Assembly (NCBI GenBank): GCA_044350415.1
Contig: JBILHQ010000001.1
Span: 22,257 to 86,256, forward strand
Direction of reading: 5' to 3'
Source: Saprospiraceae bacterium
GTDB taxonomy: Bacteria; Bacteroidota; Bacteroidia; Chitinophagales; Saprospiraceae
DNA length: 64,000 bases
Positions 2,239-49,935 of this stretch are shown piece by piece; the first letter of the stretch is position 1; the number at the start of each line of letters is the position of its first letter. The notes beneath the pieces were generated by a model. It was not told where the DNA came from and did no database searches. It saw only the letters and a list, made by a program, of their open reading frames with translations. Made by a program: the position numbers and the translations under genes.

Positions 2239-2245
2239 TAATCAG

Positions 2246-2310
2246 GAGTGAGAGGTGAGGTGCGAAGATTACCCCAAAAATGGAATCATCTATGCACCTC
2301 CTGTCTCACT
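2246..2310. terminator. imperfect hairpin between convergent genes, possible bidirectional terminator
   Basis: GAGTGAGAGGTGAGGTGC (2246-2263) pairs with GCACCTCCTGTCTCACT (2294-2310) and is followed by TCTATTTTTT. The loop is large (about 30 nt), so this is tentative. Confidence 0.3.
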
Positions 2311-2311
2311 T

Positions 2312-7975: not shown

Positions 7976-7984
7976 ATACCCCCG

Positions 7985-9977: not shown

Positions 9978-12900
9978 ATGCGTTTAATTTTTTTAGTCCT
10001 TTTCAGCATTTTGACGTTATCCCAGGTCATTGCTGATAACCACACTGATTACCTGAATCTGATTGTTAATTCCGAAAAACCGGCAGGTGTTGAAGATTTG
10101 CCGTTAACACTGGCCATCGATTCCATTCACCATGTGAATTGCCTGTATTCCACTGGTTATGTTCATGTTCAAGCCCAGGGAGGAACGTCTCCCTATATTT
10201 ATCACTGGAGTAACGGTATAGCAGGGCCTCTCGGCAACGCGCTTATCCCCGGGATTTATACGGTTACAGTCACCGATGCTGCCAGTTTAACCACAGCACT
10301 TCTGGTAGAGGTGGAAGAAAATTTCACTTACCCATTTGCCGATGCTGGCAATGATATTGAAATCCTGTGTGCCGGCGATCCCCTTACCATTAATGGTGCA
10401 GGGTCGATGGGAGCAGGATTTACCTATCTCTGGACTGCTTCCAATGGTGGGAGTATTGCATCCGCGGCAACTACATTAAATCCTTTGATCAATCATGCCG
10501 GTGACTTTATGCTGGTGGTGACCAATGGACAAAATGGGTGTACCGCATCTGCTCTTATGGTTGTAAAAGCCACTTTCGAGTCGCCAGTTGCTACCGTTAC
10601 CGGAGGTATTCTGACCTGTGTTCAGCCGCAGATAACCCTGCAATCCGCCTATAATGTAACGCATACCATGTTCAGTTGGCAAGGACCCGGCAATTTTATG
10701 TCGCCACTACCGAACCCCATCGTCACTACCCAGGGAAACTATATTTTCACATTGACTGACACCGTTACCACCTGTGTTACTACAGCAATGACAACGGTAA
10801 CCTCCAACAGTACGCCTCCGGCTATTACGGCAGCGTCCAGCGGAACCATTAGTTGTCTCAATACTTCTGCAACTATTTTTGCCAATGCTACACCAGCTGG
10901 TGCAACCATTCTTTGGAGCGGCCCTAACGGGTTTTCTTCCGCTGCGCCTTCCCCACTTATTTATATTGGTGGAGTATATAATGTGGTTGCAACTAATCCT
11001 GTAAATGGCTGTACAACGACCGCAACTACCACCGTCAACGCTAATATTATACAACCAGGAGTCGTTGCTACTGGAGGTACACTTACTTGTGCCATTACTT
11101 CAGCCACCCTGCACAGCAGTTCGGGTACACCGGGTGTGGTTTATGCCTGGAAAGGGCCATCGAACTTTACTTCCTATCAGGCCAATCCAGTGGTAGCCTT
11201 TCCCGGAACCTATACTGTCTCTGTTACCAATCCTTCCAATGGATGTATCAGCACAGCGGTTGCAGGCGTTTCCCAAAATGTAACATCACCCAGCCTTACG
11301 ACTACGGGCGCTACTATTACCTGCTTAACGCCATCACCCAAAATTTCAGCTAGTTCCACTACTTCAGGAGTAACCTACTCCTGGGGTGGACCGGGAGCAT
11401 TTAGTTCCACTGTTTTTAACCCCAATGTAACTTTAGGCGGTATTTATACTATTACTATCACAAATCCTGCCAATGGATGCATAAAATCAACTTCAGTATA
11501 CGTAACAGAAGATAAGCAGCCACCCTACGTTTTTGCAGGTACCGACAAGTCGCTCAATTGCAATGTATCTACGGTAATCATGAATCCATTGGGAACTGGT
11601 TGTGGTACCAGTTGTACCTATCTTTGGACTACTGATGATGGCAACATAGTCTTGGGAGCCAACACCTTGTATGCCCGGGCAGATACACCAGGTGCCTATA
11701 CGCTCACGGTAAAAAGCCTCCTTAACGGTTGTATGGCTTCTGATGTAATGGATATCACCCAATCGATGCCAGTGACGGCAACCGCGACCCAACTTGGTAT
11801 GGTAACCTGTAACGGAACTGCTACCGGCTCGGCGAAGGTCACTGGTAGTGGCGTAGGTGCACTGAATTATACCTGGTCGAATGGCGTCACCACGGCCACC
11901 GCCAGTAATTTATCAGCAGGAACTTATACAGTCAAAGTAGCGGATCAGGAAGGATGTAGTGCTGTTGCCAGTGTTACTATTACACAACCTTCTATTTTGG
12001 TTGCAGGTGTTCAAACCACGCCTCAAACAATGGCCGGCTCAAACAATGGAACGGCTTCGACTGTGGTCACAGGCGGAACTGCACCATACACTTATAAATG
12101 GAATACCGGCCCGGTGACAATGTCACTTAGTAATCTGGCTCCGGGAAATTACACCGTTACGGTTACTGACAGTAATGGATGTACAAAAGCGCAAACAGGT
12201 ACGGTAAATTCTGTCGCCTGCTCTATTACCGGATCGGTGACTGCCACCAATGTATCTTGTTTTGGCACGAGCAATGGTACGGCTACCGTGAATCTTACCG
12301 GCACCTCAGGAACAATCACTTATTTATGGTCAAATGGCGGCAATACCAAAACTGTTACCAATCTCGGACCTGGCAATTATTCAGTAACCACAACTGACAA
12401 TAATGGCTGTTCCGCAGTGTTTACCACTCCAATCACCACCCCGCAATTATTGGTATTATCGCTTGCTAATCAGAACAATATCAAATGTTTGGGCCAGCAA
12501 ACCGGCTCTGCTACAGTCTCGGCTTCCGGCGGAACATCCCCGTATAGTTTTGTATGGTCGACAGGCACCAGTGGATCAACCGCCTCCAACCTGAATCCAG
12601 GCACCTACTCCTGTACTGTTACTGATGCAAAAGCATGTACGGTAAAGCAAATGGCACAGATTCAACTCACTGACCATAATCCTCCCCAATTGGCCCTCAA
12701 AAATGCTACTGTTTTCCTGAACAGTTCGGGCATAGCAACAATTACACCAGTGTTATTTGATAATGGCAGTATCGATCTGGAATGCTCTATCAGTTCCTGG
12801 ACGGTGAGCCCAACAACTTTTGATTGTGAGCAAATCGGGACGTATACCGTGACGCTGACGGCCACCGATCAAAATGGCAATACATCTACAGGAAATGCTT

Positions 12901-14585
12901 CGGTAACGGTGCAAGACAATATCGTACCTACGATAACCTGCCCGGCTAGCCAAACTGTTGCGTCCTGTGTTACAACTGTAACCTTTTCGGCACCTGTTGT
13001 AACTGACAACTGTCAGGTTTTCAGCAGTGCAATATTGACCAGCGGTATGCCCTCGGGTTCTGTATTTCCATCTGGATTAACCACCCAGGTATTTTCCTTT
13101 ACCGATTATGGCGGTAACACTGCTACTTGTAATTTTACCATTGCAGTAATGGCCGCTTTTGAGACATCAGTCACCGCTACCCCACTTTCGTGTACGGCTG
13201 TTTGTAATGGGACAGCAAGTGCTGCCGTCAGCGAGATTAATGGATTCGCGAACTACTTATGGAGCAATGGACAAAATAACCCGGTTGCAACCGGACTTTG
13301 TCAGGGGTTTTATACCGTGACCGTTACTGACGCTGCTGGCTGTTCACAAGTTCATCAAGTTGACGTAATGGCAGAGAATGGACCTGCCTACAATTTGTCT
13401 CTGAATACCGTGACTGCAAGTTGTGATGCAGTGTGCGATGGCAGTGTACAGTTGTCTGTGTCTGGTGGTAATTCAACGCCATTCGTATCCTGGAGCACCG
13501 GACAATCCGGCACGTCACTTACTAATCTTTGCCCCGGCAGCTACCAGGCCACATTGACAGACGCTTCCGGGTGCAGTCAAATGCAGGAGATACAAATCGG
13601 TGTGCACGACAATCAGGCGCCCACAATGATTTGTCCGGACAATATTATGCGGGGATCCTGTTTGTCCAATATTGTATTTGATATGCCGCAGGTACTTGAC
13701 AACTGTATCGTGAACCAGCAACAACTCCAGCAAATTAGTGGGTTTGCCTCCGGCACTTCTTTTCCGGCAGGCACCACGATCCAATCCTTTCAATATACCG
13801 ATAACGGTGGCAATGTTGCACAATGCAGTTTTATAGTGACCGTTAGTCCAATATCTGTTTTACAATCATCTGCAACACCAGTCACTTGTGCCAATGCCTG
13901 CAACGGCACTGCAACAGTTAGTGTTAACAGTGGTCAGGGGCCCTTTAATGTATTGTGGAGTACAGGAACACCGGGTTCATCGGTTTTGAACCTTTGTGCA
14001 GGCACTTATACAGCAACCGTTACAGACGGGTCAGGATGCATCCAAACAGCAACAGTTTCTGTCACTCAACCTGGACCACTTGTACTTGGCGTTGATTTGG
14101 TACAAAATGATGCTACCGGAACCGGAACAGGCAGTATCTCCGTGGCAATCAGTGGCGGGGTGTTGCCGTATACATATTCCTGGAAGCGCGATGGCCAGTT
14201 TTTTGCTGCCACAGAAGACCTCAACGGATTATCTGCCGGCCAATACGCTCTTATTGTTACCGATGCCAATGGCTGCACCGTCGCAAGCAGTATACTGACG
14301 ATCAGCACTACTGTAGCAACTGGGGAAGTAACAGAAATCTTGAAAATGGCTGTTTACCCTAATCCAGCCCGTTCGGAGGTTTTCATCCAGTTGGCAGGAT
14401 CAACAGATAAAACCATGCAACTTCAGATTATGAATATGCAAGGCCGCATTTTACGGGAAGAAATGACCACCCGTGAAGGCAGCGATCCAATTATGATAAA
14501 CATAGAAGACTTACCCGAAGGCATGCTGCTGTTTCGTTTGACCAATGGGGAAAGCGCTGTTTCAAAAATGGTAGTAAAAATTTAG
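9978..14585 (+). CDS. T9SS-secreted giant surface protein with Ig-like, SprB and HYR repeats
   Basis: Signal peptide, then six Ig-like repeats of about 78 aa (..TC..P...L....GV.Y.W.GP..F.S...NP.V...G.YT.TVTNP.NGC). It has about 11 SprB-type repeats (C.G..TG.A.V...GG..PYTY.WS.G......NL..G.Y.V.VTD..GC) and two HYR-like modules (D...P.I.CP......C...V.F..P...DNC). The C-terminal sorting domain is VYPNPARSEVFIQL...LLFRLTNGESAVSKMVVKI. Confidence 0.85.
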   Translation: MRLIFLVLFSILTLSQVIADNHTDYLNLIVNSEKPAGVEDLPLTLAIDSIHHVNCLYSTGYVHVQAQGGTSPYIYHWSNGIAGPLGNALIPGIYTVTVTDAASLTTALLVEVEENFTYPFADAGNDIEILCAGDPLTINGAGSMGAGFTYLWTASNGGSIASAATTLNPLINHAGDFMLVVTNGQNGCTASALMVVKATFESPVATVTGGILTCVQPQITLQSAYNVTHTMFSWQGPGNFMSPLPNPIVTTQGNYIFTLTDTVTTCVTTAMTTVTSNSTPPAITAASSGTISCLNTSATIFANATPAGATILWSGPNGFSSAAPSPLIYIGGVYNVVATNPVNGCTTTATTTVNANIIQPGVVATGGTLTCAITSATLHSSSGTPGVVYAWKGPSNFTSYQANPVVAFPGTYTVSVTNPSNGCISTAVAGVSQNVTSPSLTTTGATITCLTPSPKISASSTTSGVTYSWGGPGAFSSTVFNPNVTLGGIYTITITNPANGCIKSTSVYVTEDKQPPYVFAGTDKSLNCNVSTVIMNPLGTGCGTSCTYLWTTDDGNIVLGANTLYARADTPGAYTLTVKSLLNGCMASDVMDITQSMPVTATATQLGMVTCNGTATGSAKVTGSGVGALNYTWSNGVTTATASNLSAGTYTVKVADQEGCSAVASVTITQPSILVAGVQTTPQTMAGSNNGTASTVVTGGTAPYTYKWNTGPVTMSLSNLAPGNYTVTVTDSNGCTKAQTGTVNSVACSITGSVTATNVSCFGTSNGTATVNLTGTSGTITYLWSNGGNTKTVTNLGPGNYSVTTTDNNGCSAVFTTPITTPQLLVLSLANQNNIKCLGQQTGSATVSASGGTSPYSFVWSTGTSGSTASNLNPGTYSCTVTDAKACTVKQMAQIQLTDHNPPQLALKNATVFLNSSGIATITPVLFDNGSIDLECSISSWTVSPTTFDCEQIGTYTVTLTATDQNGNTSTGNASVTVQDNIVPTITCPASQTVASCVTTVTFSAPVVTDNCQVFSSAILTSGMPSGSVFPSGLTTQVFSFTDYGGNTATCNFTIAVMAAFETSVTATPLSCTAVCNGTASAAVSEINGFANYLWSNGQNNPVATGLCQGFYTVTVTDAAGCSQVHQVDVMAENGPAYNLSLNTVTASCDAVCDGSVQLSVSGGNSTPFVSWSTGQSGTSLTNLCPGSYQATLTDASGCSQMQEIQIGVHDNQAPTMICPDNIMRGSCLSNIVFDMPQVLDNCIVNQQQLQQISGFASGTSFPAGTTIQSFQYTDNGGNVAQCSFIVTVSPISVLQSSATPVTCANACNGTATVSVNSGQGPFNVLWSTGTPGSSVLNLCAGTYTATVTDGSGCIQTATVSVTQPGPLVLGVDLVQNDATGTGTGSISVAISGGVLPYTYSWKRDGQFFAATEDLNGLSAGQYALIVTDANGCTVASSILTISTTVATGEVTEILKMAVYPNPARSEVFIQLAGSTDKTMQLQIMNMQGRILREEMTTREGSDPIMINIEDLPEGMLLFRLTNGESAVSKMVVKI

Positions 14586-14723
14586 TCCAAAGTCAGCTAG
14601 TCCCAGGTCTGTAGAGTGTACCCCAAGCATACCGACCACTTGTATCAACCGACATGCTTGAGGTTAACTCTACAGACCCGGGACTAGGGACTAATTGACC
14701 TGGGACTAACTGACTTTGGACTA
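14583..14723. repeat. family-1 palindromic intergenic element, copy A (dimer)
   Basis: The left arm is TAGTCCAAAGTCAGCTAGTCCCAGGTCTGTAGAGTGTACCCCAAGCAT. The right arm is its reverse complement with 4 substitutions and a 22-nt word duplication. It exactly fills the gap between two convergent stop codons. Confidence 0.9.
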
Positions 14724-17201
14724 ACTTTTAATAACCTTCTCCACCCACATCATTTTTCCAAACTTATCCTGTACTTGCAGTAAATAAACACCTGCAGGAA
14801 GGTCGTTAATCTTCCATGCCGCAAAACCATTGCCGCCTAAGGAAGAGATCGTTTCAAAACGCACCTGAGTTCCCCACAACGTATACAACGCCAGTGAACA
14901 GACCTGATCGGGTGTATTTTTTACCACCATTTGCAAATCGCCGGTGGTGGGGTTAGGGGACACATCCACCGCAATTCCTGTTGTTTCCGGCAAAGTAGTA
15001 TTCACCGGAAAATCCATATATCCAGTAGCCAGCGCATATTCGCCGCGGATCATGGTGTCTAAGCGAATAACACCTAAGCCATCGGTCATCGATCCAACGG
15101 CCAGTACCACTGCCCTTGGATAACGTATCCATTCATGCCCTGCTTCCTTGCGGTACAGCACGATAAGGCTGTCTTCTGGTATTGTGGCGAGCAAATCAGC
15201 GTCTAATTCCGCGTTGGTAGTGCCTCGGTCGTACCGGATAATACCGTTGCCAATAAACCCATCAGGCCAAATGCCGTTGATATTCCAGTAATGCCGGGAT
15301 GAAATTTTTACGGTGGATGGCAAATCAGGCGTCACTTCCGGAGCGCTCCAATGGTGCTGAATCAAGACAAAAGCGGAATCACCGGCCGGGACGTTTTTAA
15401 CATTGATTGAAAAAGAGGTGTTCGTGCCGCTCACAGAGCCCGTTGTTTTGACGACTTTATCATAATTCACATGGGCAAGATTCAGCTCCTGGTTCCGGTT
15501 GAGCATACAAAATTGCGGTTCGAAGGGCAATATGAAAGTCGCTGCTCCTTTTTCGCCTGCTGCTATCATTCGCCTGCTTTCAAAACTCCCGTCAGCTTTC
15601 CTGAAATTCACTTCCAATGGAACGTTGTGGTGAAAATGGGTGCTGGCCCGAAGTCCCTGCCGCACGGCAACTGCCGCTTCAAAATTGCCGTTGCCCAAAG
15701 GTTTAACCACACAGGAATCCAGTGCAAAATCTGACCATCCGGGATTAAAGATCCAATCGTCAAAAAAATTAGTGAGGTCCACTCCCGTATAGGCCGTGAG
15801 GCTGTCACGCATTTCATAAGCATCCATTGCTTCGTAGCGAAGTGCCGTTTGTAAATGGGTCATACCGGTCCGAAAAAGTGAATCGCCGAGGTAATAACGC
15901 ATGTTATGCATGGTCATAGCTCCTTTATTGTAGGTAGTAGTTCCGTAGGTGACTTCATGGGGCATTGGAGAAAGTGGTAAAAAAGCACCGTCATCATAAT
16001 GGGCACTAAATAACATGTCCACATTATTTTGTTTTTCGAGGGTAATAAAATCAGTTTTGCCAAAGTAATGTTCGATAAACAAATGCGCACCATATTCAGC
16101 ATTACCTTCTTTTACCCACATATCGGACTCACTACCAACGGTTACCACATTGCCCCACCACTGGTGTGCCAGTTCGTGCGTCAAGATAGAAATATTCGAC
16201 GCGTTATTGACCGGATCAATCAAAAAATCGGGGTAAATAGTATTTCCCGGATTTTCCATGGCTCCACGGGTAGCCAGTGCATACCCGACTTTATTGTAAG
16301 GATATGGACCAAACCAATATTCAAAACAATCCAGTGCTTTATTCAGGTAGTTAAAACAGGCGTTTTTGGCCCGGGTGGTGTCAGCATGGTGGGCCAGTAC
16401 TTCCATAGGGTACTCTTCTCCTGTTAGGCCTGTATGCTGGCGAACCAAATGGCCATAATCGGCAGCAGCAAAGCTCACATGATAAGTACAGGATGGCACA
16501 TCGAGGCGATAAGTGCGCCAGACCTTTTGGCTGTCGGGGCCGGGTATCTCGACCAGAAAATCGCCCGTCGCATAGGTGCGATACGGAAGTGTGGTTAAAA
16601 ATGACATTTCAAAACTCGATCGCTCCACAAAATTGTCGAAACACGGAAACCATGCATGACCGAAGTTGTGTGGATCGTCTGTCAATCCAATACTCAAATT
16701 GTAAATATAATTACCTTCAAAATACACCCCCCCAAAATCGGAAGGCGATTGAATCGGTGTACCCTGGTACCAAACAGTCAGAGAACCTGTTTCACCCACC
16801 GCCATGGGGGCAGGTAAGGTAATTACCAGCGAAATGCCCTGGTGCGAAAAAAGCAGGTTTTCACCTGTTGCATTTTTGATAGAATCTACGGCAAGCCCCA
16901 GAAGATCCAGCGTAATGGTACTCAAATCGGGTATCTTCGGACTAAACAGAACGGTACAAGTACCTTTGAGTTTTTTAGACGCAGGCGAACTGATATCAAT
17001 TTTGATATCATAATGAATAATATCAAAAGAGTCGCTGCGGCTGTTGGAAGCGAAAATAGCTGCCTTTTTTTGAGCAGTTAAGGGTTCGCAATGGGCATCC
17101 CGTTTCATGTAGTGGCAGCCATAGCGCTGTATACTGTCGGGCTGAGCCTGAAGGGTAATCGCCGCAATAAAGCAAAGAAGAAGGGTGTGAATTTTTTTCA
17201 T
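14721..17201 (-). CDS. M1 family metallopeptidase (aminopeptidase N-like), T9SS-secreted
   Basis: Signal peptide; GAMEN motif (TRGAMENPGN); HELAHQWWGN plus WVKEGNAEY. The C-terminal sorting domain is VSPNPTTGDLQMVV...GVYLLQVQD. Confidence 0.9.
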   Translation of the reverse strand: MKKIHTLLLCFIAAITLQAQPDSIQRYGCHYMKRDAHCEPLTAQKKAAIFASNSRSDSFDIIHYDIKIDISSPASKKLKGTCTVLFSPKIPDLSTITLDLLGLAVDSIKNATGENLLFSHQGISLVITLPAPMAVGETGSLTVWYQGTPIQSPSDFGGVYFEGNYIYNLSIGLTDDPHNFGHAWFPCFDNFVERSSFEMSFLTTLPYRTYATGDFLVEIPGPDSQKVWRTYRLDVPSCTYHVSFAAADYGHLVRQHTGLTGEEYPMEVLAHHADTTRAKNACFNYLNKALDCFEYWFGPYPYNKVGYALATRGAMENPGNTIYPDFLIDPVNNASNISILTHELAHQWWGNVVTVGSESDMWVKEGNAEYGAHLFIEHYFGKTDFITLEKQNNVDMLFSAHYDDGAFLPLSPMPHEVTYGTTTYNKGAMTMHNMRYYLGDSLFRTGMTHLQTALRYEAMDAYEMRDSLTAYTGVDLTNFFDDWIFNPGWSDFALDSCVVKPLGNGNFEAAVAVRQGLRASTHFHHNVPLEVNFRKADGSFESRRMIAAGEKGAATFILPFEPQFCMLNRNQELNLAHVNYDKVVKTTGSVSGTNTSFSINVKNVPAGDSAFVLIQHHWSAPEVTPDLPSTVKISSRHYWNINGIWPDGFIGNGIIRYDRGTTNAELDADLLATIPEDSLIVLYRKEAGHEWIRYPRAVVLAVGSMTDGLGVIRLDTMIRGEYALATGYMDFPVNTTLPETTGIAVDVSPNPTTGDLQMVVKNTPDQVCSLALYTLWGTQVRFETISSLGGNGFAAWKINDLPAGVYLLQVQDKFGKMMWVEKVIKS

Positions 17202-17226
17202 AATTTTTTTTTAAAAAAGGCCAAAG

Positions 17227-17318
17227 TTAGTCCCAGGTCCGTAGAGTATACAGCAAGCATCTCGATTTTTACGAATGGCCTGCGTGCGTGGGGATTACTC
17301 TACGGACCTGGGACTAAT
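17227..17318. repeat. family-1 palindromic intergenic element, copy B (dimer)
   Basis: Perfect 22-bp arms: TTAGTCCCAGGTCCGTAGAGTA (17227-17248) and TACTCTACGGACCTGGGACTAA (17297-17318). It abuts the TAG stop of the upstream minus-strand gene. Confidence 0.9.
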
Positions 17319-20966: not shown

Positions 20967-20971
20967 GGGAA

Positions 20972-21104
20972 AAGAATATCGAACACCGAATATCGAATAT
21001 CTAAGTGTGTAAAGGGTGCCCCAAGCAGATCGTTTTCAGGTAGTTACTTTAACTACGGTCCGCTCTACACACTTCGATATTCGGTGTTCGAAATTCAATA
21101 TTCT
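20972..21104. repeat. family-2 palindromic intergenic element, copy F
   Basis: The left arm is AAGAATATCGAACACCGAATATCGAATATCTAAGTGTGTAAAGGGTGCCCCAAGCAG. The right arm is CTCTACACACTTCGATATTCGGTGTTCGAAATTCAATATTCTT. It shares the CCCCAAGCA / CTCTAC core with family 1. Confidence 0.85.
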
Positions 21105-21140
21105 TTTCATCTCCCTCTTGCGCATATCAAACAACTCCTG

Positions 21141-28299: not shown

Positions 28300-28318
28300 G
28301 GTATGAAGTATGAAGTAT
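28299..28318. repeat. word repeat AGGTATGAAGTATGAAGTAT
   Basis: A 20-mer identical to 48186-48205. It begins in the stop codon of the esterase gene, between convergent genes. Confidence 0.8.
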
Positions 28319-28325
28319 TTTTTCC

Positions 28326-32798: not shown

Positions 32799-32979
32799 CA
32801 TCGACATCACACTCAGAAAAATCCTTTTAAATCCGTGTCCAATCCCTCAAATCTGTATTCCATCGACATCACACCCACCCACATCACGCCCGGAAAAATC
32901 CTTTTAAATCCATGTCCAATCCCTCAAATCCGTGTTCTATCGACATCACGCACCCACATCACGCTCAAAAAAATCCCGC
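32799..32979. repeat. tandem repeat, about 2.5 units of 62-78 nt
   Basis: Unit 1 is 32799-32860, unit 2 is 32861-32938 and the partial unit 3 is 32939-32979. The shared sequence is CATCGACATCAC...AGAAAAATCCTTTTAAATCCGTGTCCAATCCCTCAAATC. Confidence 0.8.
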
Positions 32980-34496
32980 TAATACCCCACATTCTGAACC
33001 ATACCACTCAAATCGATCTCCTTTTGCGGCACTGGCAGCAGTTCATGTTTATTTGCTACGAAATTTTTTCCTGCCGCAATCATGACCGCCGATTGCCGGC
33101 CCCAACGCTGCAAATCGAACCAGCGATGCTGTTCCATGGCCAGTTCTGACCGGCGTTCGCGGTATATTTTTTCGCGCAATTGCGGCTGATCGGTGATCGT
33201 AATATCAGCGAGAATGCCTGGCGGGAAGGCTGGCGCGGTAGCGCGGGCACGCTGGCGTACCTGATTTAAAAACACCAATGCCTGAGATGATTTCCCGTTC
33301 TCATTGAGGGCTTCTGCCGCTAAAAGTAAAATATCAGCATACCGGAGGATACGGATATTCCCGGGGCCATTGTCCTGAAGTCCGGTGTGCGCAGGCACCC
33401 AGGCTTTCCGGTTAAAACGCTCGCCTATGATTTCGGGATTGTCCTGGATCTGCGCGGAACCGTCGGGCAGGTCGTTGCCGGGCTCCAGATAAGTGGCTGA
33501 CTTTCGGGGATCAAACAATTCAAAAGAGGATACCAGATTGTCAGAAGGCCGGTTGAAGCCCCACCCGAGGTTGGGAATGCCGCGAACCCCTTGCACCATA
33601 TTGAAAGGCGTGGCACCCGGACCAGTAATGCCGTCAACCGGATCAAGAGCCGCCGCTTGTATTTCAAAAACAGACTCCGCACCATTTTCGCCTGTCGGTA
33701 AAAAGATATCGCGGTAAACAGGCAAAAGGCTGTATTCGTTGGAATTAATAATATCGAGACAAAGGGTTTCCGCTTTGAGAAAATCGTGTTTGACCAGGTA
33801 CAATTTTGCCAAAATACCCTGTGCGGCACCTTTCGTCAAACGGCCAAGATCGGCCGATGGATATTTAGATTTTAAAGGCAAAACCGCAATAGCGTCAGTC
33901 AGGTCGCGTTCGATCTGTGCATATACTTCTGCTACCGGTTTACGGGTTTGGGTATAGTATTGGTCGGCGCTCAAAGGCTCCGTGATAATCGGAATTTCAC
34001 CGAACCATTGCACCAGCAAAAAATAGGCATAAGCCCGGAGCGCTTTATTCTCCCCCAGCAAACGCTTGCGCAGAGTTTCATCCATCGCCGGCACATCGGG
34101 AATACGCTGAATAGCCAGATTGGCCCGGGCAATCACCCTGTAAAATCCACTCCAAACACCGCTGATACTGGAATTAGCTGGATCGAACGTGAAATTGTCC
34201 ATATCCAGCATATACAGGGCGTCAGTCGGCGTAGAGCCTTTATCGGCATCGTCGCTGAGGATATCCGTCGTGCCTAAATAAGGCAGTGCGGTACATTCCC
34301 AACTGCGCAACTGGTTGTACACGGCATTAGTGGCTTGTGTGGCCTGGTTGCCGTCTAAGAAAAAATTGGCGACGTCCGCATCACCCTGGGGTTTGCGTTC
34401 GAGAAAATCTTTGTTGCAGGCGGTGAAATGCAGTGCAACCAGCAGCAGCGCGAATACTGCTTTTTTATGGTTCTTATTGATATATTTCATTGTCAT
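32979..34496 (-). CDS. susD: RagB/SusD family nutrient-uptake outer membrane lipoprotein
   Basis: Lipoprotein signal (LVALHFTACNKD), TPR-like SusD architecture, and a position immediately downstream of SusC. Confidence 0.9.
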   Translation of the reverse strand: MTMKYINKNHKKAVFALLLVALHFTACNKDFLERKPQGDADVANFFLDGNQATQATNAVYNQLRSWECTALPYLGTTDILSDDADKGSTPTDALYMLDMDNFTFDPANSSISGVWSGFYRVIARANLAIQRIPDVPAMDETLRKRLLGENKALRAYAYFLLVQWFGEIPIITEPLSADQYYTQTRKPVAEVYAQIERDLTDAIAVLPLKSKYPSADLGRLTKGAAQGILAKLYLVKHDFLKAETLCLDIINSNEYSLLPVYRDIFLPTGENGAESVFEIQAAALDPVDGITGPGATPFNMVQGVRGIPNLGWGFNRPSDNLVSSFELFDPRKSATYLEPGNDLPDGSAQIQDNPEIIGERFNRKAWVPAHTGLQDNGPGNIRILRYADILLLAAEALNENGKSSQALVFLNQVRQRARATAPAFPPGILADITITDQPQLREKIYRERRSELAMEQHRWFDLQRWGRQSAVMIAAGKNFVANKHELLPVPQKEIDLSGMVQNVGY

Positions 34497-37549: not shown

Positions 37550-37560
37550 ACTTTAGAGCG

Positions 37561-37680
37561 TTACTGGGTTAAGAGGTTACGGGTTATTGGTTTAGGGGTT
37601 AGGGGGGTACTGGGTTTCGGGTAGATGTAGTAAAATACAATCGAGAAATATTGCAGCCACCAGAAATCCAATAACCCTTT
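37561..37680. repeat. word-rich intergenic element with partial inverted repeat (copy H)
   Basis: Tandem G/T-rich words (TTACTGGGTT, GGTTACGGGTT, GGTTTAGGGGTTAGGGG, GTACTGGGTTTCGGGTAGATGTAG). GGGTTATTGG (37581-90) pairs with CCAATAACCC (37668-77). Confidence 0.7.
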
Positions 37681-37682
37681 AC

Positions 37683-39893
37683 CTAATTCATAGTTACTTT
37701 TATTTTTTGTAATTCTTCTGAGTTGCCACCCACCATGATTTCAAAATCGCCGCGTTCGGAGCCTTTGGTCATGTTTTTGCGGAAAAAGCTGAATGATTCA
37801 TTGTTCAGAATAAATTTGACATCGCGGGTTTCACCTGGTTTCAGCATGATTTTTTCAAAACCGCGCAGTTCTTTCACCGGGCGGGTTACGGATCCTACCA
37901 GGTCGCGGATATAAAGTTGTACCACTTCTTCGCCTGCTATTTTGCCGGAATTGGTAACGGTTACAGTAATGGTGATTTTTTCTCCCGGTTTAAAGATGGG
38001 AATATTGCATTTGGGCGCGCTATACGTAAATGTGGTATAGCTCAAACCGAAACCAAATGGGTAAAGCGGCGTATTGACAATATCAATGTACCGGCTGTTC
38101 CATTTCGAATTCGGATCATAAGGACGTCCGGTGTTTTTATAATTGTAAAAAACAGGCACTTGCCCTACTGATCGCGGAAAAGTCATGGTCAGTTTTCCGG
38201 AAGGGTTGTAATCGCCCCACAAAACGTCGGCGATGGCATGGCCGGTCTCAGTACCGAGCCACCAGGTTTCGAGGATTGCCGATGCTTTTTCTGCCAGGTT
38301 GGGAATAGCCAACGGACGGCCATTCATCAAAATGACGATCACCGGTTTGCCGGTTTTGGCCAATTCGAGTACCAATTCTTCCTGCACGCCGGGGAGCATA
38401 ATATCGGAGCGGGATGCCGCTTCGCCACTCATCATGGCTTTCTCGCCGACCGCAATAATTACTACATCTGCCTGTTGGGCGGCGTTGAGGGCTGCTTCAA
38501 AACCGCTGCGATCGTCGCCTTCGATTTCACAACCCTTGACGTAAGTGACGTTGCCATCACGGAGTCCTTCGCGCAGGCTGACACAATCGTTAAAATTGCC
38601 CGCGCCATTCCAGTTGCCGATCAATTCCGTTTTGTTATCGGCTAACGCACCAATAAGCGCGATTTTTTGTCCTTTTTTCAAAGGCAAAATACCTTTCTCA
38701 TTTTTCAACAAAACAATAGATTTACGGGAAATATCGCGGGCTGCAGTGCGGTGTTCGGGGGTGAGCATGGTATTTTTTTCCCGTTCCGCATCGCAGAATT
38801 TGTAGGGATCGTCAAATAATCCCAAATCGTATTTTACTTGTAAAACCCGCAATACGGATTCATCGATCAGTTTGAGGGTCACTTTACCCTCTTTGAGCGA
38901 CTGTGCCAGAAAACGTTGGTAAATGCTGCCCTGCATATCCATATCAACGCCCGCATTCAGCGACAATTCTCCGGCGGCTTTATCATCAGCTACTACGCCG
39001 TGGTTGACCATTTCATTCATAGAAGTATAGTCGGTCACGACAAAACCTTTGAAGCCCCATTCTTTGCGCAGAATATTGGTAACGAGGTATTTATTGCCCG
39101 TAGCTGGTACACCGTCGTAGTCGTTAAAAGAGGTCATTACACTGGCTGCACCTGCTTTTACAGCTGCTTCATAAGGCGGCAGGTAGTACTCGCGAAAAAA
39201 CCGTTCGCTCATGTCCACAGTATTGTAGTCGCGACCGGCAGTAGCAGCGCCATAAGCGGCAAAGTGTTTTACACAGGCGACCATGGCATCGGTCTGGCCT
39301 AATTTTTTGCCCTGAATGCCATGTACCCGAGCTTCGGCGATACGGCAACCGAGCCAGGTATCTTCTCCTGCGCCTTCCATCACCCGGCCCCAACGCGGGT
39401 CGCGGCCAATATCCACCATGGGCGCATAAGTCCAGTGCAGACCGGCGGCAGCAGCTTCCTTGGCAGCGATATGCGCCGATTGTTCCAGGGCGGGAAGGTC
39501 CCAACTGCAAGACTCTGCCAGCGGAATCGGGAAAATAGTTTTATAGCCGTGAATCACGTCAAATCCGAACAAGAGTGGAATTTTCAGGCGGGTTTCTTCC
39601 ATCGACACCTTTTGGAGTTCGCGGGTAAAAGCCGTTCCGTGGCTGTTGAACAGGTTACCACAAGCGCCGCTACGAATATCATTTTTATACCCTTCGCGGA
39701 TAGTGGGTCCCGTGCTACCCCAGTCGGTGGTGTACAGGGTGAGTTGGCCTATTTTTTCCGCCAGCGTCATTTTGGCCAGCAATGCCTTGGCCTTTTGGGC
39801 TGTTGCCGCCGACGGTTGGTACAATTGTGCAGAGACCGGTCCCACCGATACGATACACAGCAAAAGGAGTATACTTAAGTTTTTCATCGTCAT
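37683..39893 (-). CDS. bglX: glycoside hydrolase family 3 beta-glucosidase (BglX-like)
   Basis: Signal peptide and GH3 N-domain with nucleophile context GFKGFVVTDY. A C-terminal sandwich and an Fn3-like domain (VVQLYIRD...RPVKELRGFEKI) are present. Confidence 0.9.
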   Translation of the reverse strand: MTMKNLSILLLLCIVSVGPVSAQLYQPSAATAQKAKALLAKMTLAEKIGQLTLYTTDWGSTGPTIREGYKNDIRSGACGNLFNSHGTAFTRELQKVSMEETRLKIPLLFGFDVIHGYKTIFPIPLAESCSWDLPALEQSAHIAAKEAAAAGLHWTYAPMVDIGRDPRWGRVMEGAGEDTWLGCRIAEARVHGIQGKKLGQTDAMVACVKHFAAYGAATAGRDYNTVDMSERFFREYYLPPYEAAVKAGAASVMTSFNDYDGVPATGNKYLVTNILRKEWGFKGFVVTDYTSMNEMVNHGVVADDKAAGELSLNAGVDMDMQGSIYQRFLAQSLKEGKVTLKLIDESVLRVLQVKYDLGLFDDPYKFCDAEREKNTMLTPEHRTAARDISRKSIVLLKNEKGILPLKKGQKIALIGALADNKTELIGNWNGAGNFNDCVSLREGLRDGNVTYVKGCEIEGDDRSGFEAALNAAQQADVVIIAVGEKAMMSGEAASRSDIMLPGVQEELVLELAKTGKPVIVILMNGRPLAIPNLAEKASAILETWWLGTETGHAIADVLWGDYNPSGKLTMTFPRSVGQVPVFYNYKNTGRPYDPNSKWNSRYIDIVNTPLYPFGFGLSYTTFTYSAPKCNIPIFKPGEKITITVTVTNSGKIAGEEVVQLYIRDLVGSVTRPVKELRGFEKIMLKPGETRDVKFILNNESFSFFRKNMTKGSERGDFEIMVGGNSEELQKIKVTMN

Positions 39894-39937: not shown

Positions 39938-40611
39938 ATGAGCGAAGTCACCGTAACAACACCCCTGAACGTCGAAGACTATATCGCTTTCGAAGAAAGC
40001 CCGACATCCGCCATGACTATATTAAAGGTGAATTTATTCCTGTACCAGGTACAACAGACGATCACAACGAAATATACTTCAATATAAAATCAATGTTGAA
40101 GCAGTTAATTCACGGCTTACGTATTTATACCGAAAGTGTAAAAGTGCAAATTACATCTGCGCAAGATTACACTTATCCGGATGTTTTAGTCGCACCTGAT
40201 CCACGCGATCTGGAGAGCACATACATTAAAAAATACCCGTCTGTCATATTCGAAGTCATATCCAAAACAACGCATATCGACGATGCTGCCGATAAATTTA
40301 TCCGGTACAAAAACATCGATTCGCTTCAAAACTACATTCTCGTAGACTCCGAAAACATCTTCATCGAAGTCCGGGCAAAACAAGACAATGGCGAATGGCT
40401 CTCAGAAATCTATCTTTCCGCTAACGCCCGATTCCCGATCCCAGCCCTCGGTGTGGAATTAGAGATTTCGGGGGTTTATGAAGGGATTTTTTTAGTCCCA
40501 AGTCAGTTAGTCCCAAGTCCCAAGTCTGTAGATTACACCCCAAGCGGGGCGGCAAGTACTTATGTACGACACACTCACGGAACACTCTACAGACCTGGGA
40601 CTTGGAACTAA
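39938..40611 (+). pseudogene. Uma2 (DUF820) family endonuclease gene, frameshifted
   Basis: ATG 39938 reads MSEVTVTTPLNVEDYIAFEES and then stops at about 40087. The family continuation DIRHDYIKGEFIPVPGTTDDHNEIYFNIKSMLKQLI...YPDVLV...FEVIS is in the -1 frame from about 40000 (track ORF 40093..40611). The last ~40 codons are a translation of repeat copy C. Confidence 0.7.
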
Positions 40612-40626
40612 CTGACCTAAGGCTAA
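40493..40626. repeat. family-1 palindromic intergenic element, copy C (dimer)
   Basis: The left arm is TAGTCCCAAGTCAGTTAGTCCCAAGTCCCAAGTCTGTAGATTACACCCCAAGCG. The right arm is CACTCTACAGACCTGGGACTTGGAACTAACTGACCTAAGGCTAA. It abuts the TAG stop of the minus-strand gene at 40628. Confidence 0.85.
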
Positions 40627-40627: not shown

Positions 40628-42784
40628 CTACTTCCGCTGCGCAAACAACCACTCCAACACTGCCGGATTATACAAAGTCACATCCCACACATTGTGATAT
40701 AGTGTGGAATATTCCGTGTATTTGATATTTCCGTCCACTTCCTTCAAAGCATCCACCATCGAACGCGAACAACGCGGGAGCACCACATCGTCCAGCCCCC
40801 CGTGAAATGCCCAAATAGGGATATTGTTGATTTTATCAGCATATCTTGGGTCGCCACCGCCACAAATAGGTACTGCTGCTGCAAAAAGTTCAGGGCGGCG
40901 TATCAGCAAATCAAACGTTCCGAAACCACCCATACTCAGCCCCACAATATAAACCCGTTTGATATCAATATCCGGGTGTGCTTTTATGGTGTTGTCGATG
41001 AGCTCGAGCACCATGCGGCCAGGCACCTGAGGGGTTTCATTAAACAGATTGGGCCAGTCTTTACTTGCGGCAGCCCAGCGCTGATCGGGCGGACATTGCG
41101 GAGCGAGGAGGTAGCACGGATGATTTTCGCGGATATTTTTTTCACAAAAAACATGCACGCCGTTTTTCATCTGTTCCTGGTTGAGTTTTCCGCGTTCGCC
41201 GGAGCCGTGCAAAAAAATCACGAGCGGGTATTTTTCTCCTTTTTTGGCGGCCCAGGGTTCCATCATCTGATAAGGTAACTGATGGCCATCCTTATCGGCG
41301 TACATGGCCCGCCGGGTGAAGCTGTGCTGGTCGAGTGGGATTTCCGGATTGAATTTTTTGGGTGCAGGTTGGGTATAAGCTGGATCGATCGTTTGCCCAA
41401 TCCACCCACCGGTGAACCCGGCGCGTTTTAAGCCCCTGATGAAATAGGGATTTTTTTTCATCAAATTCCAGATCAGGCCGGAACGGTAATTTTCAATCAT
41501 CAGCACAATGGGCCCCTGGTCGATACCGAGATAATCTTTATCCACAAAATACGGAAAGCCCGGCTGCGCTTTGGGCGACTTGGCAATATCTGTAAAGGTT
41601 TCGTTGTAGCCGTCGAAAAAACCGTATTTCCCCACCGGCCACCGATTCCACATCGCTTCGAGGGTGGGCAAACAGATTTCCGGGGCAAATGGCGTGGAAC
41701 TAATCGCCGCTGTGGGCGCAATAGTGCCGTCGTCTTCGAGGTAATCTACTGCCAAACCGCGCGCGCCATAGCCTGAACAAAAAATCTTCTGGCCATTGTG
41801 CACCATATCGGCAGCGGGGCCATCGCCAGCGGTAAGCCCCCATATTTTATTACTGTATCCCTTAAATTGGGATGGATTTTCAATAAAATACTGGTGCTGG
41901 GCAAGGGTAGCGCGGCGACTGTTTTCAAAATAGTCAATCCCCATTTGGCGCATATAGTCGTCCTGAATGTCTTTAAAGTCGATCCAGCAATGGCTGTACT
42001 GGTGTCCGAAAAGCGGACCGAAATTGACCATGTCCTGCCCTTTGAAATTGGCGCGGTAATAAGGCTTGCACCACGATGTCCAAATCTCATCAGGAACTGG
42101 GTGTGTAGGCGAACCAAGCGCCATAATATTGAGCAGCATGGCTTCATTGTATCCCCGCCAGTCGGCGCAAAGAAAGCCGTCGCGCTCAGGGAACCAGCCC
42201 ATACTGAGGCGGTTGTGTTCGTTGAGGTACCAGTCCCATTCCACCCGGCGGTACAAAAAATCTGCATCTTCGCGGATGGCTTTTTCGCCGGGTTCATCTT
42301 GGTCAAAATAAGTCATGCATGACAGTATACCTGCCATCAGCAGGCCGGTATCGATGCTTGACAATTCTACTTTGTCATAACGGAGTGCTTTTTTAGCATC
42401 CAAAAAGTGATAAAACCAGCCTTTGTAGCCAGCCACACCTGTTTCTTGTTTTCCCTGAGGTAAATTTTTTAAAACTTCAAGGGTTTTACGCACCCGTTCG
42501 CGCGCTTGTGCACGAGTGATCCACCCGCGTTCCACTCCGATAATATAAGCAGATAAGCCGAATCCGGTTGCCGCGATACTGGAAAAACTCTCCGTAGGGT
42601 AACGGTCGGGAATTTGGAAGTTGCCGGGATACGCCAGGTCCCAGAAGTACATAAAATGGCGATGTTCTAATTCATCAAGGCTGTAAGGAGTATGGCTGGC
42701 TCCTGAGGATACGACCGTTTGCCGGGCACCAAAACAGCCCGAAAATAACAACGCAACAGTCAGAATGTATATGCGGATTAGCAT
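40628..42784 (-). CDS. GH144-like (putative glucoamylase/endo-beta-1,2-glucanase family) domain fused to a C-terminal alpha/beta-hydrolase esterase domain; lipoprotein
   Basis: Lipobox LLFSGC. The N-terminal ~470 aa contain YFWDLAYPGNFQIPDRYP...SSIAATGFGLSAYIIGVERGWITRAQARERV, paralogous to 46174..48057. The C-terminal ~230 aa contain YPLVIFLHGSGERG, nucleophile elbow GLSMGG, and FHGGLDDVV / YHNVWD. Confidence 0.7.
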   Translation of the reverse strand: MLIRIYILTVALLFSGCFGARQTVVSSGASHTPYSLDELEHRHFMYFWDLAYPGNFQIPDRYPTESFSSIAATGFGLSAYIIGVERGWITRAQARERVRKTLEVLKNLPQGKQETGVAGYKGWFYHFLDAKKALRYDKVELSSIDTGLLMAGILSCMTYFDQDEPGEKAIREDADFLYRRVEWDWYLNEHNRLSMGWFPERDGFLCADWRGYNEAMLLNIMALGSPTHPVPDEIWTSWCKPYYRANFKGQDMVNFGPLFGHQYSHCWIDFKDIQDDYMRQMGIDYFENSRRATLAQHQYFIENPSQFKGYSNKIWGLTAGDGPAADMVHNGQKIFCSGYGARGLAVDYLEDDGTIAPTAAISSTPFAPEICLPTLEAMWNRWPVGKYGFFDGYNETFTDIAKSPKAQPGFPYFVDKDYLGIDQGPIVLMIENYRSGLIWNLMKKNPYFIRGLKRAGFTGGWIGQTIDPAYTQPAPKKFNPEIPLDQHSFTRRAMYADKDGHQLPYQMMEPWAAKKGEKYPLVIFLHGSGERGKLNQEQMKNGVHVFCEKNIRENHPCYLLAPQCPPDQRWAAASKDWPNLFNETPQVPGRMVLELIDNTIKAHPDIDIKRVYIVGLSMGGFGTFDLLIRRPELFAAAVPICGGGDPRYADKINNIPIWAFHGGLDDVVLPRCSRSMVDALKEVDGNIKYTEYSTLYHNVWDVTLYNPAVLEWLFAQRK

Positions 42785-45800: not shown

Positions 45801-46067
45801 GTTGAGGGGTTGCGCCAAACTCGGCACCCAAAAAAGGCTGTACCCAAAACCCGCTGCTTTGGTGTAAGACCCGACGAATGCGCTGCTGTTAACGGCATCT
45901 GCGCCAGGATTGGCAATTACGCCATTGTAGGTTCCATCGGGAGCGGCCCATGCCAGATCGGAGACACCTCCTTCAAAATCTTCATACACCGTTTGAGCGT
46001 TAGTAGCCGCCCAACTCAGTAGAAGTAGTAATAGCGTAAAAATTTTCTGCTTCATAAATTTTCGCAT
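42894..46067 (-). CDS. T9SS-secreted protein with six ~155-aa carbohydrate-binding-like repeat modules
   Basis: Signal peptide, then six modules. Each module has the pattern F(E/Q)....W........NP.......S..VG.Y.K......L..P.DLS..N.F...V.......IL.KLEG.......N.W....FDFS........FFN(P)G....G..YYFDN. The C-terminal sorting domain is VVSPNPVADILFV...GLYMLSGF. Confidence 0.7.
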   Translation of the reverse strand: MRKFMKQKIFTLLLLLLSWAATNAQTVYEDFEGGVSDLAWAAPDGTYNGVIANPGADAVNSSAFVGSYTKAAGFGYSLFWVPSLAQPLNLSQNNLFKMKVWSTSATPILLKFEGPGQAVEKLVTMPAANQWVELSFDMSAGAAMTGLTKIIIFFDPGNDPGNNTYFFDDLVAVKNEVCYADFETPGLVFQGLDGVLTAPVANPGANQVNGSANCAQYVKSNAHAYSLILADNGASFDMTTNNLFKIDIYATAPTQILFKLEGSGGGFEKIKNIAVTGAWQTYYFDFSAQAANTGLSKVVMFFDPGVETSGDTYYFDNVCAVPNPCAGATPNSDILDNFECDRNATYSVSWDSLYVVGNPNISGDNNSSKVGKIFDAAGPGTEYYPLIIDNQAPVDLSVKNQFSIQVWSSKPGLLLLKLEGGPNPPSEVPVQITELNKWVTYTGDFSSQAGKGHLKWVVFFNAGVNGTAGDVYYIDNIKLSAPTAAPPLEDFQDGIHLGWQGLDQNNGIHGTFAGPVDNPAAGGVNVTTKVGCYTKGAGTFSTLQGLTLTPFDLSVSPQMNIDILSPVGVGGTVLMQLVSLTQGNKEVEAEITTPGAWETLGFDFSAFSGITDFQEIRILFNPGTAASGQKWYFDNLRQTEITIDPCAGTIAIPTIADDFECQRNNEYGAGADKITVVNNPFLTPENGSLKAGQYKDPANEPWTALCLLYPNGIDLSLYNHLSIQVYGPAAVPILFKLEGGTSPAKEIFANLTTVNGWQKFDIDFSSEMIANHQRLCIFFNAGNENPETIYYIDNIKWGRAGYNGCIDDHQTVNSTIANFKYFANGALESQGYQFEVIDNPNASGINTSSKVGKFVKAGDGAPFAGMYADLDAVIDWKGVKTAKTKVHMDHIGNFTIKLEGSQTGAPAIENPVVNTEVNKWEELNYNFAAVADNAEYKRITVFFDLGIDATGIDVISYFDDIVIGDGACGSVGIFNPIPAEPMVVSPNPVADILFVENFHGVSRIDVFNLYGQRVASLDVTNEIRSEIMVTNFPAGLYMLSGFNQQGNLLGNAKFVKQ

Positions 46068-49836: not shown

Positions 49837-49935
49837 TATTTACATGGAGAAACACTCAAAGGAGAGGACTGAATAGTAATTAACGTGAGTTTGGAGATAT
49901 TTACTTATTATTGAACAAATACGGCTTCTCTTTTT

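Follow-up and report, generated by a model that had tools for sequence, protein, structure and literature searches.

We analysed a 64,000-nt stretch (the window) of contig JBILHQ010000001.1 from a Saprospiraceae bacterium (assembly GCA_044350415.1, positions 22,257 to 86,256 of the forward strand). A first-pass annotation of this sequence had placed five copies of a dispersed palindromic repeat, here called family 1, at the 3' ends of genes, and all five (A to E) were found where it had put them. The genes that flank these elements are ordinary chromosomal Bacteroidota genes, including type IX secretion system (T9SS) cargo with Por_Secre_tail domains, SprB repeats, SusC/SusD, and Mfd, and the nearest named homologues of their proteins come from Saprospiraceae/Lewinellaceae metagenome-assembled genomes (MAGs). 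As far as sequence comparison can tell, family 1 is one branch of a wider superfamily whose conserved unit is not the family-1 word but a 63-nt module, consisting of GTAG(A/C)G, 51 nt starting with TRTACCCCAAGCA, and C(T/G)CTAC, flanked by mirror-image arrays of 7-nt or 15-nt words.

Family-1 copies share their words, core, and centre length

The word TAGTCCCARGTC, allowing up to two mismatches, matched the window 23 times, compared to an expectation of 5.5±2.4 (0 of 100 shuffles reached 23), and 18 of the 23 matches fell within the five family-1 copies. For the word-core junction CCARGTCYGTAGMG, 10 matches were observed against 1.3 expected, nine of them in family-1 copies. An 18-mer across word and core was common to all five copies, to another locus of the same species (L045), and to a metagenome locus (L009).

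The first-pass annotation had described words of about 11 nt and a non-conserved centre of 20 to 45 nt, and both descriptions had to be revised. The words are 12-mers (TAGTCCCARGTC plus an AGT linker) with a 15-nt period and a 7-nt sub-period (AGTCCCA), and GTAGMG and CKCTAC are separated by exactly 51 nt in A, B, C, and L009/L045 but by 33 nt in E. While the arms of the copies are nearly identical, their centres are 45 to 67% identical in pairwise comparisons and, from this similarity, appear to be diverged homologues. A, B, C, and E are full palindromes, with inverted arms of 19 to 46 nt that are 78 to 95% complementary; the perfect 22-bp arms reported earlier for B were present. D is a half copy. 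In both A and C, copy-specific variants are mirrored in the two arms.

The module recurs with other word types

A GTAG-anchored alignment of all arms gave the common order words-Y-GTAG(A/C)G-TRTACCCCAAGCA, and the module was found again with at least five other word types, in the window (Table 1), elsewhere in the same species, and in relatives. At L045:2447-2580, in the same species, CAGTTAT heptamers are followed by GTAGAT, exactly 51 nt, and CTCTAC (module 2479-2541). GTTTTGG words accompany the module in a relative with 70% identity in the M1 peptidase (L024), and TATCAGN words, again with a 51-nt centre, were found in a relative with 65% identity in an outer membrane protein (OMP) (L051). 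In an ungapped cross-family alignment of the modules, GTAG and CTAC were invariant and 16 of 32 mirrored pairs changed on both sides. Covariation between mirrored positions was 0.335 compared to 0.179±0.03 in shuffles (0 of 500 reached 0.335), and 75% of the mirrored cells were paired, compared to 27 to 37% when partners were slid. The symmetry of the module is maintained, and its site of action could be RNA, single-stranded DNA, or duplex DNA, in the last case as a site for dimer binding.

Table 1. Family-1 copies and other word-and-core elements of the window
Feature	Position	Strand	Words and arms	Core and centre	Setting
Copy A	14583..14723	.	full palindrome; left words 14583-14594, 14598-14609; four inverted words to 14723	T 14610; core GTAGAG 14611-14616; centre 14617-14667 (51 nt), box TGTACCCCAAGCAT at its left end; CTCTAC 14668-14673	convergent-gene spacer
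Copy B	17227..17318	.	one word per arm; perfect 22-bp arms 17227-17248, 17296-17317	core GTAGAG 17241-17246; centre 17247-17297 (51 nt); CTCTAC 17298-17303	
Copy C	40493..40626	.	words 40493-40526 including an extra heptamer AGTCCCA, mirrored in right arm; inverted words to 40625	core GTAGAT 40528-40533; centre 40534-40584 (51 nt); CTCTAC 40585-40590	
Copy D	46101..46170	+	half copy; words 46101-46112, 46119-46130, 46134-46145; without inverted arm	core GTAGCG 46147-46152, then a remnant of about 18-20 nt	
Copy E	49755..49836	.	shortened; two left words; right arm reduced to GGACCTGGG	core GTAGCG 49783-49788; 33-nt centre; TGCTAC 49822-49827	
F2a	20969..21108	.	words GAATATC/GAACACC; inverted words	core GTAAAG 21009-21014, box GGTGCCCCAAGCAG; 48-nt centre; CTCTAC 21063-21068	divergent (5'-5') spacer
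F2b	49926..50103	.	F2a-type words	inner core GTAGCGTAGAG / CGCTACGTTAC; outer pair CCGTAGAGG...CCTCTACGG outside the word arrays	
F3	37555..37690	.	degenerate; words GGGTTAN/GGTTAC; partial inverted arm AATCCAATAACCCTTTACCT	GTAGAT at 37621	tandem minus-strand spacer
F4	2243..2311	.	short superfamily-like palindrome; words GTGAGAG/GTGAGGT	GAAGAT + TACCCCAAAAAT box	convergent spacer
Solo word array	28300..28325	+	(GGTATGAAGTAT)x2	no core	fills 26-nt convergent spacer

The outer pair of F2b suggests either that one element is nested in another or that the core has been duplicated. GGTATGAAGTAT words were seen again at 48178-48220, in a divergent (promoter-region) spacer and without a GTAG core; such solo arrays may be arm remnants or a separate microsatellite family.

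Four of the five copies fold as long hairpins

Both strands were folded, and z-scores were computed against dinucleotide shuffles. A, B, C, and E folded as long hairpins, with a minimum free energy (MFE) of -39 to -87 kcal/mol and z-scores of -5.6 to -12.3. Copy A reached -77.4 kcal/mol on the plus strand and -87.2 kcal/mol on the minus strand (z -12.3 and -10.9); the corresponding z-scores were -8.0 and -8.6 for B, -8.9 and -10.8 for C, and -6.5 and -5.6 for E. The half copy D had no significant fold on either strand (z -0.4 and -1.4), and the inverted architecture previously attributed to all five copies thus applies to A, B, C, and E but not to D. Outside family 1, F2a (z -11.0 and -8.3) and F2b (z -10.2 and -9.4) also folded, and the decayed F3 had a z-score of about -1.3. 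In every full copy, GTAG was paired with the CTAC of the opposite arm. No local stem-loop beside GTAG was seen in the MFE structures or in maps of mirrored pairs, in which the arms pair only with each other.

Nearly all mismatches in A and C are C·A on the plus strand, that is, G·U on the minus strand, and minus-strand RNA of these two copies folds 10 to 15 kcal/mol better than the plus strand. For E, L009, and F2b, the plus strand folds better. A strand-specific RNA function based on the G·U asymmetry was therefore dropped, as the favoured strand was inconsistent across copies.

The elements lie at gene ends, often beginning at the stop codon

The window's nine superfamily elements all lie between genes and together account for 23% of its intergenic bases. 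Of the convergent junctions, 4 of 8 were occupied, compared to 2 of 23 tandem junctions (3 when the decayed F3 is included) and 1 of 7 divergent ones (hypergeometric P = 0.025). The statement that every copy sits within a few nucleotides of a stop codon was borne out for A (0 nt on both sides), B (2 nt), C (2 nt), and D (about 3 nt), but not for E, which is 16 nt away. The terminal TAG (14583-85) and CTA (14721-23) of A are themselves the stops of a SprB-like gene (9978..14585, plus strand) and of the M1 peptidase gene (14721..17201, minus strand). B fills the spacer between two tandem minus-strand genes, encoding a DUF6340 protein (stop 17319-21, 2 nt off) and the M1 peptidase (start 17201). 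The stop that lies 2 nt from C belongs to minus-strand gene 40628..42784, and D is found between tandem minus-strand genes (stop 46174-76; start 46067). E follows the GH18 gene 48530..49738 (plus strand), in a 525-nt convergent spacer that it shares with F2b.

On its other side, C is entered by a Uma2-like open reading frame (ORF) (40093..40611, plus strand), which extends into the element by 39 codons, crossing the left arm and the centre, and stops in the right arm. The Uma2-family gene (putative restriction endonuclease) spans 39939-40611, and its upstream ATG at 39939 encodes the family N-terminus in a frame other than that of 40093..40611. Judged by its reading frames, the gene is probably a frameshifted pseudogene.

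Similar positions were seen in relatives. At the loci L009/L045 and L050, the first TAG of the element is the stop codon; in L051, a TAG stop is directly followed by words; and in L024, the stop is 3 nt from the element. The M1 and DUF6340 proteins of the window share their end point with those of relatives, down to the residue, and the element starts at or 2 nt past the stop, indicating that the elements begin exactly at the gene end. The OMP gene beside the L009/L045/L050 element encodes 223 aa and ends in the TAG of the element, compared to 225 and 226 aa (2 to 3 codons longer) in relatives without family 1.

When A and one TA were removed in silico, the sequence became ATT-TAA-CTT, giving each of the two convergent genes a TAA stop within a shared TTAA; the M1 stop is TAA in both relatives. 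From the sequence, this restoration is compatible with insertion at TA, although the flanking T and A could also belong to the 15-mer word. Flanks of the form T/TAG...CTA/A, with TA within TTAA, fit A, B, C, and L009/L045, while F2a has no TA flanks. The idea that the elements carry designed stops in all three frames was abandoned, as most but not all incoming frames stop inside the element. Many of the genes next to elements (9978..14585, 14721..17201, 42894..46067, 46174..48057, 48530..49738, and 50264..55657) encode T9SS cargo with a C-terminal sorting domain, and the window is rich in such genes.

Orthologous junctions keep the inner part and vary in the words

The OMP junction could be compared over a range of distances. 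The L009 and L045 elements (OMP 97% identical) are distinguished by an additional AGTCCCA in the left arm of L045 only, one single-nucleotide polymorphism (SNP) in the loop, and two homopolymer indels, with 0 substitutions in about 100 paired nt compared to 4.5% at third codon positions (P = 0.011). The same family-1 element is present at this junction in L050 (OMP 83% identical), where inner arm, core, and box differ from L045 at 1 of 34 nt compared to 29% at third positions (P about 1e-4 to 6e-4). In a relative with 73% identity, the junction carries 15-mer words of another type, and in the one with 65% identity, it carries the TATCAGN-word element with the 51-nt module. Across the relatives examined (97% to 65% identity), this junction was never empty.

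At junction B, a relative with 79% identity (L023) has a direct CACTTACAACTTAAC array without a core, and its contig ends in GGGTATTAGGG words at junction A. Empty sites in relatives had been proposed as a check on the elements, and the outcome was mixed: one such junction was found, a 4-nt convergent spacer after M1 in L024, where the neighbouring gene differs, and in other relatives the corresponding junction holds the same element or a different word family. Together, these comparisons showed that the copies are old, vertically inherited residents whose inner part is constrained, that the arms slip by heptamers, and that word families differ between species at one junction.

Family 1 is restricted to a narrow lineage, and the module is more widespread

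The same organism is represented in several metagenome assemblies. A 144.9-kb contig from the European Nucleotide Archive (ENA) is 99.9% identical over window positions 7889-27201, with identical A and B. No presence/absence polymorphism was detected among near-identical strains, and A, B, E, and F2b were identical in other assemblies of the species. No further copies occur in the 7 kb downstream and 1.3 kb upstream of the window. Contigs of the organism and its relatives (L046-L049, L050, L052, L023) end 15 to 70 nt into a word array or GTAG module, from which we infer that the repeats break short-read assemblies and are probably numerous genome-wide.

A search with the 19-mer TAGTCCCAGGTCYGTAGMG through one genome for each of 185,579 species gave two chance matches only, in coding sequences of unrelated MAGs. 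Among 241 million JGI metagenome records, the 18-mer AGTCCCAGGTCYGTAGMG matched 19 loci, of which 18 were chance matches and only L009 was genuine. Two scans of IMG/VR returned no family-1 element, and a phage origin is unlikely given these empty viral scans. In five IMG/VR contigs (L029, L032, L033, L034, L043), a conserved coding end is followed by a small hairpin, GAGTCCCAAGTCC-GTA-GGACTTG; this is a chance pattern match, without word arrays or the 63-nt module. On the sequences searched, family 1 appears confined to one narrow lineage, and the module is common at least to relatives with 65 to 70% identical flanking proteins.

No transposase, integrase, or REP-associated tyrosine transposase (RAYT; REP, repetitive extragenic palindrome) was identified in the window or in the fetched flanks (Pfam scan of 29 ORFs plus precomputed annotation of the rest). 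A protein search with translated element arms gave no candidate ORF that reads into another copy, and the genome, metagenome, and viral scans with 16- to 19-nt patterns returned no longer element with these ends.

The elements are not canonical intrinsic terminators

The stable stem just downstream of stop codons, often between convergent genes, resembles an intrinsic terminator, and a terminator role had been suggested for family 1. An intrinsic terminator has a GC-rich stem with a loop of 3 to 8 nt and a T-run behind it. However, the element stems are 30 to 60 bp long with 15- to 20-nt loops, are not GC-rich, and are not followed by a consistent T-run. A consensus scan for intrinsic terminators (hairpin plus T-run) on both strands called none of the copies, leaving the suggestion without support. 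A canonical intrinsic terminator was found at 50205-50233 (minus strand), with a 12-bp GC-rich stem followed by TTTTTATTTT, directly after the gene for a 1797-aa T9SS protein (50264..55657, minus strand) and before F2b and E. This site shows that the organism makes use of standard terminators.

A further palindrome, at 42805-42885, lies downstream of gene 42894..46067 (minus strand). It is purine-rich on one side and pyrimidine-rich on the other (GGGGCGAGGCAGTATA TTTT ATACTACCTCGTCCTTCGCCCC), shows no clear GTAG module, and could be a terminator of the ordinary kind.

Relation to known repeat families

Rfam gave 0 matches over the window at gathering thresholds. At E <= 10, only eukaryotic miRNA-precursor models appeared, far below threshold, and these were set aside as generic artefacts of long hairpins. 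The literature searched gave no match to the family, and the words occur there only as unrelated primers. The earlier remark that the word-array flanks belong to no described family was thus upheld: neither Rfam nor the literature searched contains a GTAG module with a fixed length of 63 nt and mirror-image arms of heptamer words in Bacteroidota.

The first-pass annotation had likened the elements to REPs and bacterial interspersed mosaic elements (BIMEs), and much of this likeness was confirmed. Like REP/BIME sequences and REPINs (paired inverted REPs), which are mobilised by RAYT Y1 enzymes, the elements are short, extragenic, and multi-copy, with an invariant GTAG and several coexisting families. 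REPINs consist of inverted halves whose distance is fixed and whose spacer is less conserved, and they persist vertically (PMC3116915), and the elements likewise have conserved inverted halves at a strictly fixed distance, a less conserved spacer, and one long hairpin. GTAG REPs can supply TAG stop codons (PMC3733652); similarly, the elements are extragenic, lie mainly downstream of ORFs at tandem or convergent junctions, and supply TAG stops with their termini (A on both sides, L009/L045, L050). Vertical persistence at orthologous sites and the occurrence of clusters and nested forms (F2b) extend the resemblance to REPs and REPINs. The elements differ in that their halves carry 7/15-nt word arrays, which vary in number and between families, and in their host phylum. 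Most of the GTAG REPs characterised come from Proteobacteria and some from Cyanobacteria, Chloroflexi, and the Planctomycetes-Verrucomicrobia-Chlamydiae (PVC) group, whereas in Bacteroidetes no GTAG repeats were found, only CGTC repeats (PMC3733652).

The other suggestion, a palindromic extragenic repeat of the MITE type (MITE, miniature inverted-repeat transposable element), is supported by the inverted halves, the less conserved middle, and the bias toward intergenic 3' ends and convergent junctions. As in MITEs, including BrickBuilt of Porphyromonas gingivalis (PMC4596501), the elements are non-coding, 70 to 180 nt long, intergenic, and lineage-restricted, with inverted ends (here as terminal inverted repeats), variable internal tandem repeats, shortened derivatives, and no transposase of their own. 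BrickBuilt, a MITE of Bacteroidota, includes a minisatellite in the form of a direct 23-nt array, which is enclosed by small inverted ends (PMC4596501); here, in contrast, the arrays themselves are the inverted arms around a conserved central module. The elements also differ from MITEs in having no clear target-site duplication, in that no partner insertion sequence was found, and in a conservation that peaks internally instead of at the tips.

The 7-nt period recalls the heptameric intergenic repeats that are over-represented and hypervariable in Xanthomonas and Nostoc (PMC4692102). The repeats of Nostoc/Calothrix and Xanthomonas are similarly intergenic, change rapidly in length and sequence from one close relative to the next, and occasionally adopt inverted stem-loop arrangements (PMC4692102). 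They differ in lacking mirror arms around a fixed-length GTAG module, and in the cases studied they are G-rich and quadruplex-forming. Integron attC sites, imperfect palindromes with R''/L''...L'/R' boxes that follow the 3' ends of co-oriented cassettes near an integrase, did not fit: the core is GTAGMG and not GTTRRRY, the neighbouring genes, which are of mixed orientation, are large and encode housekeeping proteins or T9SS cargo, and there is no integrase. CRISPR and tRNA-derived origins were rejected from the sequences and their context. Cyanobacterial short tandemly repeated repetitive (STRR) sequences and small dispersed repeats, reportedly treated by Elhai and colleagues in 2008, may be placed alongside the intergenic heptamers.

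Interpretation

We favour the view, with a probability of roughly 0.55, that family 1 is a REPIN/MITE-like, non-autonomous foldback element belonging to a lineage-specific superfamily, mobilised rarely and in trans and persisting by vertical descent. Since arm, core, and centre length are shared at unlinked loci, the composite must have been copied between sites. We propose that an enzyme supplied in trans copies, or once copied, the composite of words and module to new sites. Its recognition target would be the GTAG module, with its symmetry and fixed spacing. From the parallel with REPINs and RAYTs, the favoured candidate would be an HUH Y1 enzyme (RAYT/TIRYT-like; TIRYT, terminal inverted repeat-associated tyrosine transposase) acting on the hairpin in single-stranded DNA. 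Insertions would survive only in very short spacers at gene 3' ends and would often land on the TA of a stop codon, with the TAG of the element then serving as the stop. Transposition would be rare. After insertion, the elements are inherited vertically and gain or lose heptamers by slippage, with inner arm, core, and box constrained, while the outer words and the loop drift or shorten, as in D and E. These two copies, half and shortened, can be read as decay forms and support the notion of an element. Element starts at conserved gene ends, the TAA stops restored on removal of A, the shorter OMP gene, the Uma2-like ORF that enters C, and the empty junction of L024 can be taken as signs of insertion.

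Several observations weigh against this view. GTAG REPs are defined as units of about 20 to 40 bp with their own stem-loop (stem 6 to 13 bp, small loop) and an unpaired terminal GTAG or close variant, located extragenically and mainly downstream of ORFs (Di Nocera 2013; Nunvar 2010). A REP or REPIN also has a cognate RAYT gene (Y1 HUH transposase, PF01797) in its genome, usually with the repeats on its flanks. The halves of the elements have no 6- to 13-bp stem-loop of their own, meaning that the arms are not two REP copies and that the REPIN rule of each half being a REP does not apply, and their GTAG is internal and paired instead of a terminal unpaired tag; on these two grounds, the elements are not REPs proper. 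The searches of the window and flanks found no RAYT or other transposase, and near-identical strains showed no presence/absence polymorphism. Ragged outer ends, combined with a conservation that is highest internally, are unusual for MITEs of the DDE type. A target-site duplication is not demonstrable, as the T/A flanks could be part of the 15-mer word (AGT-TAG). The finding of different word families at the same junction in relatives with 65 to 79% identity requires repeated re-insertion at a hot spot or rewriting of the arms. Finally, the orthologous conservation (1 of 34 nt) goes beyond selection for transposability and points to a host-level function or to gene conversion, so that some host-level role, or else concerted evolution, has to be included in any account.

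This last point leads to the main rival of a mobile foldback element, or its complement, a role as barrier or insulator at gene ends. The hairpins would then be host-functional, with the stem that starts at the stop codon acting in RNA or DNA and dispersal being secondary; we regard this as possible, but clearly less probable. Such hairpins might block transcription in both directions as an insulator between convergent genes, form a 3' exonuclease barrier, or modulate translation termination. In E. coli, REPs located within 15 nt of a stop codon have been reported to modulate translation termination. The conservation far above neutral expectation in both L045/L050 and L009/L045, the retention of a hairpin across unrelated arm sequences, the start of the elements 0 to 4 nt from stop codons in the window and in relatives, and the enrichment at convergent junctions would all be expected of a host function, as would the post-OMP junction being filled in every relative examined. 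On the other hand, no copy satisfies the hairpin-plus-T-run rule and the 1797-aa gene is already followed by a canonical terminator, F2a sits in a divergent promoter region, and M1 of L024 has no element after it. The shortening of D and E means that these copies are dispensable, and the read-through extension of the Uma2-like ORF resembles collateral damage. The better folding of minus-strand RNA in A and C would suit a function in RNA, but the better-folding strand varies between copies.

A classical DDE-type MITE is an unlikely explanation. It would have multi-site inverted ends in which the words serve as transposase-binding sites, comparable to the inverted repeat-direct repeat (IR-DR) ends of Tc1/mariner elements, which contain repeated transposase-binding sites. 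It would insert at TA (TTAA) with duplication and would be mobilised by an IS630-like element elsewhere in the genome, with insertion sequence (IS) ends expected to be of the TAGTCCCAGGTC type. In its favour, the flanks of A, B, C, and L009/L045 read T/TA-GTC...GAC-TA/A, removal of the element and one TA restores TTAA and gives in-frame TAA stops for A and L045, each arm has one to four direct words in inverted orientation between arms, and decayed and half copies exist. The flanking T and A, however, may be part of the 15-mer word, and family 2 has no TA flanks. Moreover, the tips are the least and the internal module the most conserved parts, the reverse of DDE MITEs, word number differs between arms and between strains, and no scan detected a longer element with these ends. 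A DDE-type MITE is possible, but given the ragged tips, the internal conservation, and the absence of TA flanks in F2a, it fits less well than a REPIN/MITE-like foldback element.

It is also conceivable, though speculative and no more probable than a DDE-type MITE, that the 63-nt module marks long-lived seats at Saprospiraceae gene 3' junctions, whose arms are actively rewritten genome-wide and symmetrically by a dedicated enzyme system using lineage-specific heptamers. The rewriting activity could, for example, be a RAYT-like or template-copying enzyme. Such rewriting would explain the presence of family-1 words in relatives with 83 to 100% identity and of unrelated words at 65 to 79%, the constant 51-nt length, and the words shared at unlinked loci.

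Finally, it is very improbable that the elements are not mobile and that each locus grew in place from heptamer microsatellites by slippage and quasi-palindrome template switching: heptamer arrays are frequent in the spacers of this genome (solo core-less ones included), a heptamer was gained in one arm between strains, variants are mirrored in both arms of A and C, the same junction holds different words in relatives, and heptamer repeats are known in Xanthomonas and Nostoc (PMC4692102), but local growth cannot account for one and the same 18-19-mer arm, GTAG core, box, and 51-nt centre length recurring at unlinked loci (six or more), or for a 63-nt module that different species share.

With a REPIN-like foldback element, the biology of REPs and REPINs would extend to a new phylum, and a cognate enzyme would be predicted; with rewriting of the arms, a REPIN-like symbiosis between host and element in a new phylum would be joined by a new mode of repeat generation. 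About a quarter of the intergenic DNA in the window belongs to this one superfamily of interchangeable word arms on an invariant GTAG...CTAC module. Core constraint, heptamer slippage, and word-family replacement together make it a tractable system for studying how palindromic repeats originate and are maintained. In addition, stop codons are supplied or displaced by the elements, with consequences for gene calling in these MAGs.

Other features of the window

Two further observations concern intergenic sequence outside the superfamily. At 7497-7888, between genes for an Endonuclease V-like protein and a GMC oxidoreductase, the 99.9%-identical strain (the ENA contig, L003) has about 22 unrelated nt in place of a 392-nt segment. 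SNPs are clustered at 7108-8200 around the replaced segment and the next 19 kb are almost identical; the segment looks like a small strain-variable cassette or a recombination tract. At 32804-32976, the spacer downstream of a SusD-like gene (32979..34496, minus strand) is filled by a 77-nt tandem repeat (2.3 copies, 86% matches) that is unrelated to the GTAG superfamily.

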